64,000 nucleotides of DNA from an uncultured Parachlamydiaceae bacterium (GCA_963742415.1 CAVULX010000004.1:160001-224000); one strand, 5' to 3'; shown: positions 142 through 57,815, numbered from the stretch's first letter. Made by a program: numbers and translations. The notes: generated from the letters alone by a model not told the origin.

Positions 142-213
142 GATTAATCGCAAAGATGCAAAGAAAAAACCACAGAGCCAGTGAGATCACTGGCTCTGTG
201 GTTTTTTCTTTGC
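142..213. repeat. Palindromic element: perfect 27-bp inverted repeat (158-184 / 187-213, 2-nt loop) preceded by a GATTAATCGCAAAGAT module
   Basis: gcaaagaaaaaaccacagagccagtga-ga-tcactggctctgtggttttttctttgc. Bases 142-190 match 57496-57544 at 43/49. Confidence 0.95.
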
Positions 214-1116
214 GCCTTTTGACAAAAAGAAATCAGCGAGAGCTTTATTTTCTTGCGCGACTGCAATTTGAAAAGGGGTCAATCCGCTTTTATCTTTAGT
301 ATCAAGATCAGCGCCAAAAGCCACTAAAAGTTTAACGATCCCTTCTAAACCAGCTTTAATAGATAGTTGTAGAGCCCTATGCCCGTTTGAGGTTTGATCA
401 TTCGGGTTACTCCCACTTCTTAATAAGGCTTTCACTATGGCGACCCCTTTTTCTCCACTTATGTATGTTCGGTAGAAGTTATTCCTAATCAGTTCACTAA
501 GATTCGGGTCGCTCGCTCCCAGCTTCTTCATAAAATCAACCAAAGGAGCATAATCACCTTTATCAGCGCTCTTAAGTGTTTTAATATAGTCTTTGCGTAC
601 AACACCTTCTTGATTCAAATGACTTGGCCATACAGGATGTTGACATCTGAAAGCCAGAAGAAAACGGTCGGCGATTAAACGGGAAAAACGACCGTTGCCA
701 TTCTCAAAAGGATGAATAAAAACTAAGCGGTGATGAACTCTTGCAGCCATCTCCACAAAGGTAAGCTCAACTGGGTATTGCGACCATGAGGAAACTTCTG
801 AGCAAAGCTCTACAAGCTGTGTAGGTATCAAACTGGGATTGATGCCTATTGATGTTATAGATTTTCTGTATACCCCAGCCCACTCCCAAACATCTCCAAA
901 CATAGCTTTATGAATGGCTTTAAGTTCTTTCACTTGAAACCAGTTTTTTGGATCGGCAACCGGTCCTCGAAGGTATTTTCTTTGTGCACTCATGATATTT
1001 TCAGCTTCCACTCTATTGAGATCATTTAAATGATGAACCCAAAGAGGGATAAGGCCGCTACAATCAACTATGGGAGTAGCTCCTTCCGGAAATTCAAAAT
1101 GCTCAGGCATTTTCAT
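187..1116 (-). CDS. Fic-family protein (mobile mystery protein B-like) fused to C-terminal ankyrin repeats
   Basis: N-terminal PEGATP..GLIP..LN..E..NI pattern, Fic motif HPFENGNGRFSR, and C-terminal ankyrin consensus (GHRALQLS..G..GIVKLLV.FGADLD.KDKSGLTPFQIA). Confidence 0.88.
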   Translation of the reverse strand: MKMPEHFEFPEGATPIVDCSGLIPLWVHHLNDLNRVEAENIMSAQRKYLRGPVADPKNWFQVKELKAIHKAMFGDVWEWAGVYRKSITSIGINPSLIPTQLVELCSEVSSWSQYPVELTFVEMAARVHHRLVFIHPFENGNGRFSRLIADRFLLAFRCQHPVWPSHLNQEGVVRKDYIKTLKSADKGDYAPLVDFMKKLGASDPNLSELIRNNFYRTYISGEKGVAIVKALLRSGSNPNDQTSNGHRALQLSIKAGLEGIVKLLVAFGADLDTKDKSGLTPFQIAVAQENKALADFFLSKGAKKKPQSQ

Positions 1117-1570
1117 CCCATAATTTAGAATTTGGCCCTTGCAAGAGGCGTTCCTCTTCTTGTTTTATTAGTTCTTCAATAAACCTAGAATCAGGTTGTT
1201 GGTCTTCTAAATTCATCGTTCCTTTGAGATAGCGAACTTGCTTTTCAGCCATTTTTCTTGCTTGTTTACGCCGAATAGCATCTATTGAATCTTGTAGAAG
1301 TGGAACAATCACAAGATCACATGAAATTGCGCCTAAAATTTTGTTCAATGTTGATAGATTTGCAGCTCTTTCCTCTTGCTCAATGCGAGAGATTGTAGAT
1401 TGGGGAACTCCCGCTCGCTTTGCCAATGCCTTTTGCGACATCCCCAATTGTAGACGAATAGATTTAATGAGAGCTCCAATCGCAAGACCTCTCACAGCAA
1501 CTCGAGTTTTATGAGCAGCTTGCATAACTTCTTCAATAAGAAGCTTTTCCGAAGTAGAATAAGATTTCAT
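1103..1570 (-). CDS. XRE/HTH protein, mobile mystery protein A-like (putative antitoxin/regulator)
   Basis: HTH IRLQLGMSQKALAKRAGVPQSTISRIE, TMNLEDQ motif and terminal LW. Overlaps the start of the Fic gene. Confidence 0.85.
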   Translation of the reverse strand: MKSYSTSEKLLIEEVMQAAHKTRVAVRGLAIGALIKSIRLQLGMSQKALAKRAGVPQSTISRIEQEERAANLSTLNKILGAISCDLVIVPLLQDSIDAIRRKQARKMAEKQVRYLKGTMNLEDQQPDSRFIEELIKQEEERLLQGPNSKLWDENA

Positions 1571-1581
1571 AGCTTTACCTC

Positions 1582-1660
1582 ATGCTTTATGATAGCATAA
1601 ACGACATAATATTCAATATATTTATGCTTTATTGGCATTAAAAGACATATAAAATATGTC
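1582..1660. promoter_or_regulatory. Candidate operator palindromes upstream of the HTH-Fic operon
   Basis: ATGC-N9-GCAT (1582-1598), ATGC-N7-GCAT (1624-1638) and perfect GACATAT-AAA-ATATGTC (1644-1660). Confidence 0.4.
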
Positions 1661-55399: not shown

Positions 55400-55595
55400 G
55401 TAAACCCCGTGAAGTTAAATTTTCTGATAAACTAGTTTACCATAATTCAGGATTTGGCTGCACTGGCAAGAAACAGATTTTTTTGCCCTTTTGTTTTTTG
55501 TTTCTTTGTGTTATATTAAAATTTTTGTGCTTTGCAGCGATGCAGCTGTGGAAGCTGTAATCTGTGAAACAGAGAAAAATACTGTTTAAATTCTT

Positions 55596-56390
55596 ATGGT
55601 CATCGAGTTAATGTCTTACAAGGTGCAATCTATCGGAATTTCTGACATTGGACTTGTCCGACTTAACAATGAAGATGTTTGGGCGCAAGTTCCAAAAAAG
55701 AAATTTTATGTTTTAGCAGATGGGATGGGTGGGCATCAAGCCGGCGAGGTGGCTGCGCGGGAAGCTGTTAGTTTCCTATGCTCATTTGTAGAGTCAAATA
55801 AAACATTGAATAAAAGATCTCTAGGCATCGAAGAAGCCCGTTCAATTATCGTGGATGCTTTCGAAGCTGTTAATGCTCATGTCTTCAAGCTTGGGCGGCA
55901 AGACATAGACTTGAGGGGAATGGGGACAACGCTTTGCTGCCTTTATTTTCATCCCAAAGGATTAATTTATGGAAATGTCGGAGATAGCCGAATCTATTGC
56001 TTACGGGACAAAAAGCTAACGCAGTTAAGCAAAGACCATTCTTTGCTAAGGGAATTGATCGATCTCGGGCAAGTCAGTGAGCGGCAATCAGATGATTTTA
56101 TTTATAAAAATATTATCACCAAAGCTATAGGAACCGAGCAGAACCCTGTTCGTCCTTCTGTAGATATTTTCGATATATGGGACAAAGATCTGTATATGAT
56201 GTGTACCGACGGCTTATCAGATCTCGTTAAAAGGGAGGAAATGGAATCGATTATTAATCAATCCGATTCCATCAAAGCAGCCTCCGAGATGCTCGTCAAC
56301 TCCGCAAAAAATCGTGGCGGTCACGATAATATCACAATCGTTATGGTCAAAGTGCAAGGAAAACATGAAACCAAAGGTTTATCTCGATAA
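55596..56390 (+). CDS. PP2C-type Ser/Thr protein phosphatase
   Basis: R.NNED, LADGMGGH, GMGTT, NVGDSR, CTDGL and GGHDNIT. Confidence 0.93.
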   Translation: MVIELMSYKVQSIGISDIGLVRLNNEDVWAQVPKKKFYVLADGMGGHQAGEVAAREAVSFLCSFVESNKTLNKRSLGIEEARSIIVDAFEAVNAHVFKLGRQDIDLRGMGTTLCCLYFHPKGLIYGNVGDSRIYCLRDKKLTQLSKDHSLLRELIDLGQVSERQSDDFIYKNIITKAIGTEQNPVRPSVDIFDIWDKDLYMMCTDGLSDLVKREEMESIINQSDSIKAASEMLVNSAKNRGGHDNITIVMVKVQGKHETKGLSR

Positions 56391-57501
56391 TAACGCTACA
56401 ACATTCATAGATCCTAGGGCTCTTGCAGCAGTTTCTACCCATCTCCAAACTCATCTCGGCAATCCTTCAAGCCTCCATGCTTTCGGTCAGGAGGCACGCG
56501 CAATTTTGACAAATTCACGCCATTACATTGCAGCATCCTTGGGTGTCAAATCTCAAGAAATTATTTTCACTTCCGGTGGAACTGAGAGCTTAAATATGAT
56601 TTTTCGAGGAATTTTTCAGAAAGATGGATCGAGTCATCTTATCACCTCTTCTGTTGAACATGCAGCCGTTTATTCCACCGCAAAAGCATTGGAAGCATTA
56701 GGAACAAATGTCACTTTTTTAAATCCAGGCATTTGGGGGGCTGTTGAACCTCAAGCCGTGAAGGCTGCCATCAGGCCAAACACTCAGTTGATTGCTTTGA
56801 TGGCTGTCAACAACGAAACGGGTGTAAAGACAGACATCAAGGCTATTGGTGCGATTGCAAAAGAAGCTAAAATCCCTTTCCTTGTGGACGGCATTGCATT
56901 GCTTGGAAAGGAACCCTTCCAAATCCCCGATGGAGTAACGGCCATGGTTTTTAGTGGGCATAAACTGCATGCTCCCAAAGGGATCGGCTTGACATGGGTT
57001 CGGAATACTCTGTCCTTGCTTCCCCTTTTGACAGGGGGTGAACAAGAATTTGGAAAAAGGGGGGGGACAGAAAATCTTCCAGGGATTGTGGGACTCGCTA
57101 AAGCGATCGCTTTGCTTGAAGAGGAGCTTCCCAAAGCTACAATAAAGATGGCAAATCTGCGCAATAAATTTGAGGCAGAGCTTATCGATGCCCTTCCCGG
57201 AGTGACAATTAATGGAACAGGACCGCGCATTTGCAATACCTCCAATTTGGCTTTTGAAGGGATTGAAGGGGAAACCCTTTTAATGAGGCTTGATATGGAA
57301 GGGATTGCTGCGAGCCACGGATCTGCTTGCGCCTCGGGCGCATTGGAACCCTCTCGAATCCTTCTTAACATGGGATATAAAAGGGAACATGTTGCTTCAT
57401 CTTTGCGGTTCTCCTTGAGCCGCATGACGTCTGAGCAAGAAATAGAAACAGCTGTCCATATCATCTGCACCCTCGTCCGCAAGCTCAGGCATCAGGATTA
57501 A
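56365..57501 (+). CDS. iscS: Cysteine desulfurase IscS/NifS
   Basis: YLDNNATT, GNPSS.H, FTSGGTES, SGHK and SHGSACASG. Start MKPK at 56365. Confidence 0.93.
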   Translation: MKPKVYLDNNATTFIDPRALAAVSTHLQTHLGNPSSLHAFGQEARAILTNSRHYIAASLGVKSQEIIFTSGGTESLNMIFRGIFQKDGSSHLITSSVEHAAVYSTAKALEALGTNVTFLNPGIWGAVEPQAVKAAIRPNTQLIALMAVNNETGVKTDIKAIGAIAKEAKIPFLVDGIALLGKEPFQIPDGVTAMVFSGHKLHAPKGIGLTWVRNTLSLLPLLTGGEQEFGKRGGTENLPGIVGLAKAIALLEEELPKATIKMANLRNKFEAELIDALPGVTINGTGPRICNTSNLAFEGIEGETLLMRLDMEGIAASHGSACASGALEPSRILLNMGYKREHVASSLRFSLSRMTSEQEIETAVHIICTLVRKLRHQD

Positions 57502-57815
57502 ACGTAAAAATGCAAAGAAAAAATTATAGAGCCAGTGAGATCACCGAGAACGTTGAAGATCGGTGAGAAGATAGGAAAATTTGAGGGGGTAACAGGATAA
57601 GCATGATCGTAAACGGCAGGATAAGCAGGATGAAAAAAAATATTTTTTTTAAATCATTTAAACTTAATTATATTCCCACATCCTGAACCTTTTTATTCAA
57701 TATCCTGTTTATCCTGCCGTTTACGATCATGCTTATCCTGTTACCCCCTCAAATTCTCGTATTTTCTCACTGATCTCAAACGTCCTCAGTGATCTCACTG
57801 GCTCTGTGGTTTTTG
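57496..57815. mobile_element. Nested foldback element: 104-bp arms (57528-57631 / 57702-57805) around an AT-rich loop
   Basis: The inner 54 bp has 1 mismatch and the outer 50 bp (GAGCCAGTGAGATCAC family) has 8 mismatches. The left end matches 142-190. Confidence 0.88.

Follow-up and report, generated by a model that had tools for sequence, protein, structure and literature searches.

Layered palindromic repeats in an uncultured Parachlamydiaceae genome and a probable IS200-like Y1 transposase partner for one group of them

The closest described counterpart of the repeats considered here is the REPtron of Escherichia coli and Pseudomonas, in which repetitive extragenic palindromic (REP) sequences, their doublets (REPINs) and their clusters (bacterial interspersed mosaic elements, or BIMEs) are accompanied by a RAYT (TnpA-REP) transposase (PMC2817692, PMC3116915, PMC3333891, PMC6006769). 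Acido-Lenti-1 (RF01687) is listed as a probable small RNA of Acidobacteria and Lentisphaerae (Weinberg 2010, PMC2864571) and a 2026 preprint still calls it "of unknown function." The TnpA-Y1 transposases of subclass 1.2 are generally without typical IS200 terminal hairpins, and no REP partner is named for them in the part of that classification drawn on here (Quentin et al. 2018, PMC6006769). REP sequences can themselves be the targets of insertion sequences (Tobes and Pareja 2006, PMC1525189). Here we analyze a stretch of 64,000 nucleotides (the window) from an uncultured Parachlamydiaceae bacterium (GCA_963742415.1, CAVULX010000004.1), which is C4:160001-224000 of a 2.69-Mb genome with 42% G+C in four contigs (contig names are prefixed to coordinates; C1, C2 and C3 alone denote modules). 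A preliminary description of the window had reported four palindromic modules, A to D, combined into concentric inverted layers, and had proposed that several short elements insert repeatedly at the symmetry axis of earlier palindromes and could form a REPIN-like system driven in trans by an HUH (RAYT/IS200-type) or other nuclease encoded elsewhere.

The explanation that we favor, and that we consider probable as a whole, is that the window shows at least seven dispersed, noncoding, hairpin-forming repeat families in two groups, REP-type and other. [quoted passage not shown]

Module D and a Y1 transposase gene

The dense, layered repeat landscape is real. The window modules were located by direct reading, inverted-repeat and direct-repeat finders and a module map of the genome, in which frequent 13-mers were assembled into unitigs and 21 modules were mapped, matches covering less than 60% of a module being dropped. 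The map contains 221 loci, and matches per module range from 6 to 129 (G, the CAGGAT module, 129; P, 66; D85a, 66; C1, 60; B, 56; D85b, 43; D65, 34; A, 6). The modules are short, noncoding, multicopy and dispersed through the genome, as had been supposed: the 16-nt core of B is present in 27 exact copies and in 82 with up to three mismatches, the 12-nt core of C in 33 exact copies, a 35-nt D unit in 15 and 54 copies and a 43-nt CAGGAT unit in 2 and 51 copies, according to search stringency, and module A (20 fixed letters) in 9 copies with up to two mismatches, against a chance expectation that we estimate at ~0.01. BLAST searches of six window elements against the genome returned 44 to 346 matches each, and in a genome self-comparison 55,457 bases in 305 segments matched at least five other places. 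On a crude map of open reading frames (ORFs), 199 of the 221 module loci are intergenic; 7.5% of the repeat bases lie inside ORFs, versus 86% for the genome, and gaps between convergent genes account for 90 of 220 repeat loci versus 329 of all 2,043 gaps. The repeats occupy ~38 kb of the ~377 kb of noncoding DNA (~10%). No paper on chlamydial repeats of a REP-like or MITE-like kind turned up in a literature search.

It is very improbable that the foldbacks are assembly artifacts. Long palindromes can be misassembled, and this genome is in four contigs; against this, dozens of diverged copies lie at unique loci and related copies occur in assemblies of other genera. As weaker support, because the source sample may be among them, contigs from two public metagenome runs span both outer junctions of element E2 (Table 1) with 0 and 2 differences; these runs contain small shares of the stretch, and their contigs reach the outer junctions only and not the interior. 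The stretch was present in no RNA run.

Module D occurs in an 85-bp and a 65-bp type, and a single Rfam family, RF01687 (Acido-Lenti-1), was matched in the window at the gathering threshold, on both types, with four matches above the gathering score of 37 bits. The genome as a whole contains 97 matches, 49 of them above the gathering score, and 14 control genomes contain none. D arrays are direct tandems ending in one inverted unit. Of the paired arms, or shells, formed by module P, 24 of 31 enclose an inverted D85a pair, and the combined P and D unit is present in multiple copies in eight other genomes at 76 to 88% identity.

The only Y1 transposase gene recovered in a Pfam search of the genome (one match among five scored candidates; PF01797, E value of 5.9e-23) is located at C4:1304441-1304755, 1.08 Mb from the window. 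Its translation contains the motifs H-V-H and Y..Q..HH (Y-x3-Q-x2-HH), and a 25-bp tandem duplication splits the reading frame, so that the first 24 codons are in a different frame from those that follow. Inverted P and D modules border the gene on either side, and D hairpins of the 65-bp type occur farther downstream. The closest relative is found in a metagenome-assembled genome titled "uncultured Chlamydiae bacterium." Intact orthologs with the same flanks and 60 to 66% identity are present in four other genera (loci L002, L102, L110 and L114, from a chlamydial metagenome-assembled genome and genomes G008, G013 and G014). Those flanks consist of a P-like hairpin, a CCCAGG...CCTGGG hairpin with CTAT after it, and a small hairpin with a TTTCA loop; the set is found downstream in all four and is repeated in inverted form upstream in G008 and G013. 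The last ~30 residues are conserved among the five proteins, in an alignment of these orthologs alone. The proposal that an IS200/RAYT-type HUH gene is encoded elsewhere in the genome was supported, with P and D as the modules that flank it.

The covariance model agrees with this arrangement to differing degrees. RF01687 was matched on both sides of the Y1 gene, in inverted orientation, at L001 and L114; L102 has two flanking matches, both assigned to the plus strand by cmscan, and its inverted upstream copy was read from the sequence; L002 and L110 have a match on one side only. Among 40 loci of distant homologs, RF01687 reached the gathering score in 7, all from Verrucomicrobia or Planctomycetes, often ~45 nt past the stop codon. 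Counts among 30 relatives were 105 in G004, 96 in G018, 32 in G013, 14 in G014, 11 in G015 and 7 in G008, the family being absent or nearly so in the remaining genomes, and in G004 the matches flank another Y1 gene on both sides. The ~100 matches in G004 have identical scores and form mostly inverted pairs ~144 nt apart (for example, C3:262923-263113); these doublets are very uniform and look recently amplified, and the Y1 gene beside them is intact.

The preliminary description held that the window itself contains no such enzyme, a statement contradicted at the edge of element E4, where a second Y1 gene is represented by a stub of 24 codons. The stub is 74, 65 and 57% identical to the N termini of intact Y1 paralogs of 150 to 151 amino acids in G014, G018 and G009, respectively. 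Pfam gave no match on its 24 residues. The remainder of this gene was not recovered in the genome: the PF01797 search had its single match elsewhere, and tblastn with the 24-residue stub found only the stub itself.

We propose that the Y1 enzyme would bind D hairpins in single-stranded DNA and would cut and rejoin them, and that this reaction may spread head-to-head doublets into intergenic gaps, mostly at the 3' ends of genes; tandem D arrays could then expand by slippage. The wrappers of D would be P, O and Q around the 85-bp type and C1 to C3 around the 65-bp type. A REPIN-like system driven in trans by an HUH enzyme is retained for D and these wrappers, which are tied to the Y1 gene, and not for the modules treated below.

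A number of observations weigh against this interpretation. The Y1 gene is frameshifted and the second Y1 gene is a stub, so that there is no sign of activity in this genome; with both genes broken, the D, P, O, Q and C families, and hence the REP-type repeats, are probably stranded here. The distribution of repeat and enzyme is imperfect, since 8 of the 12 genomes with two or fewer RF01687 matches, among 18 same-family relatives, still have Y1 matches (of any class), and G015, which is 79% complete, has 11 RF01687 matches and no Y1 match. In the RF01687 model alignments, hairpin 1 is followed by a conserved CUA and its foot lacks GT[AG]G, and the class-2 RAYT motif YI..NP is missing from the enzyme. 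Finally, after crude removal of duplicates, the orientation of the asymmetric Q-to-O elements was independent of GC skew (21 versus 16).

Palindromes without a recognized enzyme

B arms consist of ~50 nt of purine-rich 9- to 10-nt units, each with TGAGA; the map contains 56 such arms, including 4 in "closed" hairpins like that of E1, and the interiors of five B pairs without a guest are unrelated AT-rich DNA. The CAGGAT (G) family forms 59 paired shells, for which neither a target duplication nor fixed outer ends could be defined, and its single-stranded DNA fold has a z score of -11.5. The arms of shell R are built of 8-nt units rich in purines, and the outer end of this shell is similar to module A. 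In Rfam, B and CAGGAT gave only subthreshold matches, to generic long-hairpin microRNA models. Further palindromic families, K/L and M/N, are GC-rich hairpins with GAA and GGAA loops, some of them in arrays (C4:1268180-1268917, C4:339555-340325 and C3:755400-755606).

The I-H-J family is of a different kind. Its 27 units of ~140 bp have 18-nt terminal inverted repeats in alignment and a 6- to 7-bp AT-rich duplication, read by eye, that matches within a locus and differs between loci; judged by these ends, it is an ordinary MITE with target duplication and so is not HUH-like. No ORF-bearing unit between I and J ends, which might represent an autonomous relative, was found in this genome, and after crude duplicate removal the units showed no replication-strand bias. 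A search of inverted arm pairs of every module at distances of 350 to 5,000 bp likewise found no enzyme gene between the arms of B, G, R or I-H-J; only P/D arms enclose the Y1 gene, and the others enclose ordinary genes. An IS607-like element with TnpB is present in five copies, four full (~1.86 kb, ~97 to 98% identity) and one internally deleted. These elements were considered as drivers of the palindromes and rejected, as a palindrome surrounds only one of the five copies.

Across genera whose flanking genes are 63 to 72% identical, the arms of CAGGAT and B retain 82 to 91% identity. This conservation is one reason to consider that the repeats have a host function, acting as transcript ends, in mRNA stability, as protein-binding sites or as an Acido-Lenti-1 small RNA, with their spread being secondary. 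The enrichment at convergent gene ends, the strong E1 hairpin between A and T runs and the Rfam classification of D as a small RNA would be consistent with such a role, which is also compatible with the explanation that we favor. It fits poorly with D units that occur on both strands, pair up in inverted orientation, form arrays and surround a transposase gene, with copy numbers that vary from 0 to more than 100 between related genera, with an E3 gap that holds no element in two relatives and with a simple terminator scan that did not call E1. A host function as the primary explanation is thus unlikely. B, R and CAGGAT, kept across genera, nevertheless provide a concrete lead to a DNA-binding or mobilizing factor.

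Window elements and the origin of their layers

The four modules and their concentric layering were found by direct reading and by the repeat finders at the coordinates first reported (Table 1). In the module map the layers read A+ B+ B- for E1, B+ C1- C2- C3+ D65+ D65- D65- D65- C3- C2+ C1+ B- for E2 and A+ G+ G3- G- B- for E3; the left B arm of E3 falls below the 60% coverage filter and is nevertheless visible in direct-repeat family D11. The E1 arms (inverted repeat I9) are 94% complementary, and the hairpin, flanked by A and T runs, folds at -32.9 kcal/mol (z score of -11.4); that of E6 (inverted repeat I10) folds at -31.9 kcal/mol (z score of -10.9). Inside the B arms of E2, C1-C2-C3 arms (36318-36425 and 36652-36759) enclose D65 units, with a tandem of three 65-bp units at 36522-36716. 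The D array of E4 appears as six overlapping 199-nt matches with an 85-bp step, comprising five whole 85-bp units at 12929-13353 followed by a final inverted D hairpin. The interior of E3, an element that fills the entire gap between two convergent ORFs, contains linkers, CAGGAT arms (57591-57631 and 57702-57742) and an AT-rich loop. The coreless Q-O arrangement at 6277..6365 is unique among 20 Q matches.

Table 1. Coordinates of repeat features and transposase-related features (window positions unless a contig is given)
Feature	Position	Strand	Remarks
Module A	142, 1717 (inverted), 57496		
Module B	from 174; 36245/36800; 57529/57787		
Module C	24677; 36326/36713; 54439		
Module D	12.9-13.4 kb and 36.5-36.7 kb		Tandem units (3 x 65 bp at 36.5-36.7 kb)
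E1	142..229		Module A, then B hairpin of the "closed" form with arms 152-184 / 187-219; flanked by two convergent ORFs
Lone module A copy	1717..1744	-	Inverted
Q and O end-pieces of P-D85 element	6277..6365	+	Adjacent, palindromic core absent
M/N-type hairpin repeat	12673..12764	-	N module 12684-12711; directly upstream of transposase stub
Y1 transposase stub, 24 codons	12777..12848	+	Second IS200-like Y1 gene, cut at E4 edge
E4	12841..13470		O arms 12841-12886 / 13425-13470; P arms 12887-12928 / 13383-13424
RF01687 in E4	12988-13042, 13243-13297, 13328-13382	-	
E5	24677..24790		Degenerate closed C1 hairpin and decayed C2/C1 arm
E2	36230..36834		Outer B arms 36230-36308 / 36756-36834
RF01687 in E2	36518-36562	+	
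E6	54434..54499		"Closed" C1 hairpin; between two convergent ORFs
E3	57496..57825		A 57496-57523; B arms ~57524-57548 / 57785-57814
IS607-like copies	C1:14442-16298, C2:105274-107132, C2:113883-115740, C4:806851-808706, C4:934159-935529		Serine-recombinase TnpA and TnpB-like ORF

The claim that inner layers are more perfect than outer ones holds for E3 (A 61, B 84, linker 83 and G 98%) and roughly for E4 (O 91, P 100 and D 97%) but not for E2 (B 94, C1-C2 96 and C3 with D 91%). Across the genome, 172 loci contain a single family and 49 contain several, of which 15 show true nesting and the other 34 are adjacent or one-armed. B hosts G, C and I-H-J; G hosts C1 (twice), I-H-J and a whole Q-P-D-P-O element; and C and P-D each host an M/N guest. 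The R shell is closed four times, contains a G guest twice and an IS607-like guest once, and in one further case has a P-D core in its center with flanks that are complementary at 40 of 40 positions. In a CAGGAT element whose loop contains I-H-J, the AT-rich duplication is present on both sides of this guest. The A-B-G composite occurs three times, which suggests that composites are copied as units. The gap that holds E3 is only ~30 bp between the same convergent genes in G010 and <15 bp in G013, so that the comparison of orthologous gaps in these two other genera identifies E3 as an addition. For E2 and E4 the flanking genes were not neighbors in the five genomes searched, and the gene adjoining E6 had 80 metagenome loci (best protein identity, 81%) with no module matches and no shared neighbors. 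All comparison genomes lie outside this species and genus, a further point to set against our explanation, as presence/absence polymorphism is beyond their reach.

The most far-reaching form of the original proposal is that a single HUH-type enzyme works in trans on every module and that each new element is actively directed to the symmetry axis of an older palindrome, where the apex is single-stranded. Guests do lie between the host arms in 15 of 15 nested loci, the R center holds three kinds of guests, and one C1 hairpin is placed exactly where the complementarity of the host arms ends. Mini-hairpins of the C-GAA-G and GCGAAGC types are unusually stable in single-stranded DNA, and the many hairpins here with C-GAA-G-type loops would be stable in that form. 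Repeated insertion is supported to this extent, but targeting of the axis is not. With the noncoding occupancy given above, one insertion in ten would meet a resident element by chance, and nesting at 15 of 221 loci does not exceed what crowding alone predicts. An insertion that splits a host arm would escape the module map, so the central position of guests is partly an effect of detection. Moreover, B, G and R have neither a hairpin nor a tag in common with D and are absent from the flanks of the Y1 gene, I-H-J ends in inverted repeats and is bordered by a target duplication, and the IS607-like element lies within a palindrome in only one of its five copies. We therefore doubt that a single targeted enzyme accounts for the whole.

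The same loci have features that insertion alone does not explain. The open B and C forms retain a full mini-hairpin in each arm, which plain insertion at the apex would not leave behind and which thus counts against simple insertion, and one R loop resembles the collapsed ends of a CAGGAT element. This closed R hairpin (C4:1157304-1157412) has a 20-nt loop like two outermost CAGGAT ends joined, and it may be what a lost guest left behind. Together, the mini-hairpins and the collapsed-looking loop indicate that deletion also shapes the layers. In its extreme form this idea dispenses with insertion: fold-back (template-switch) synthesis would copy one arm and its flank into the other arm, hairpin collapse would delete interiors, and open and closed forms would be states of one element. 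Closed B and C hairpins indeed consist of the outer stems and a single copy of the mini-hairpin present in both open arms, and the outer arm extensions vary between subfamilies. However, inner units are frequent alone (59 G shells and 31 P shells) and within unrelated hosts, the inner arms of E3 are better matched than the outer ones (98 versus 84%), and I-H-J has a direct target duplication, so that an origin without any insertion seems improbable. The coexistence of open and closed B and C forms also resembles that of REP doublets and singlets.

The explanation that we favor combines these processes. A new copy that inserts into the loop of an existing palindrome would be tolerated, which would produce the layering, composites might be copied whole, and interiors may sometimes collapse. 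A bolder version is possible and is offered tentatively: among at least seven families of environmental chlamydiae, the loop of one hairpin could be the preferred landing pad for the next, foldbacks could be copied as units, and the arms of B, R and CAGGAT could be held at their similarity of 82 to 91% across genera by a trans-acting protein that reads purine-rich 8- to 10-nt units. The repeats indicate that obligate intracellular chlamydiae can harbor dense, long-lived populations of this kind. In practice, layered palindromes break assemblies, are mistaken for RNA genes and terminators during annotation and mark places where genomes rearrange.

Some further features of the window were recorded. 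C-GAA-G and GCGAAGC-type mini-hairpins recur at 12929-13382 and in many D, L and N modules. The ORF adjoining E1 (187-1116, minus strand) has by eye an HPFxxGNGR-type Fic motif and ankyrin-like repeats, and an ORF upstream that overlaps it (1103-1570, minus strand) looks like a helix-turn-helix partner. Two giant ORFs encode 2,876 residues (45803-54433, plus strand) and 1,743 residues (26107-31338, minus strand), and the stop codon of the former abuts E6.

Comparison with described systems

The comparisons that follow hold for the parts of the published descriptions drawn on here. The D group is like the REPtron in that an abundant extragenic hairpin repeat, in inverted copies, borders a low-copy Y1/HUH gene (one gene and a 24-codon stub) on both sides, and in that the repeat forms head-to-head doublets, clusters and arrays with a preference for the 3' ends of genes. 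It differs in its enzyme, which has Y-x3-Q-x2-HH rather than the class-2 RAYT motif (PMC6006769), and in its repeat, whose unit has two hairpins, the first followed by a conserved CTA(T), instead of a stem with GT[AG]G at its foot. Further long palindromic layers also enclose the doublets here, and both enzyme genes are dead. BIMEs are regular REP clusters that alternate in orientation with set linkers; the arrays in this genome run as direct tandems up to the single inverted unit that closes them.

REP palindromes are known targets of other mobile elements, IS1397 being an example of an insertion sequence that targets REP. One IS607-like copy and several small elements inside hairpin centers recall this behavior; unlike in the REP-targeting case, the guests here are mostly other nonautonomous palindromes, and four of the five IS607-like copies lie outside palindromes. 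Bacterial MITEs include the Correia elements and the QMITEs of Coxiella, and I-H-J is like them in size, terminal inverted repeats, target duplication and copy number, but no related autonomous element was found in this genome.

Module D meets RF01687 above the gathering score and has the same two hairpins and linker. Unlike the family as filed, it behaves as a DNA repeat, present on both strands in a chlamydial lineage and beside a transposase gene, which would give a function-level reading to an Rfam "small RNA" orphaned since 2010. The enzyme, for its part, resembles subclass 1.2 in its Y-x3-Q-x2-HH signature, small size and low copy number, and possibly in its conserved C-terminal tail. 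It departs from the subclass as published in that hairpin repeats flank the gene both in this genome and in those of four other genera, and module D may thus represent a DNA partner for a group of Y1 transposases that was described without one.

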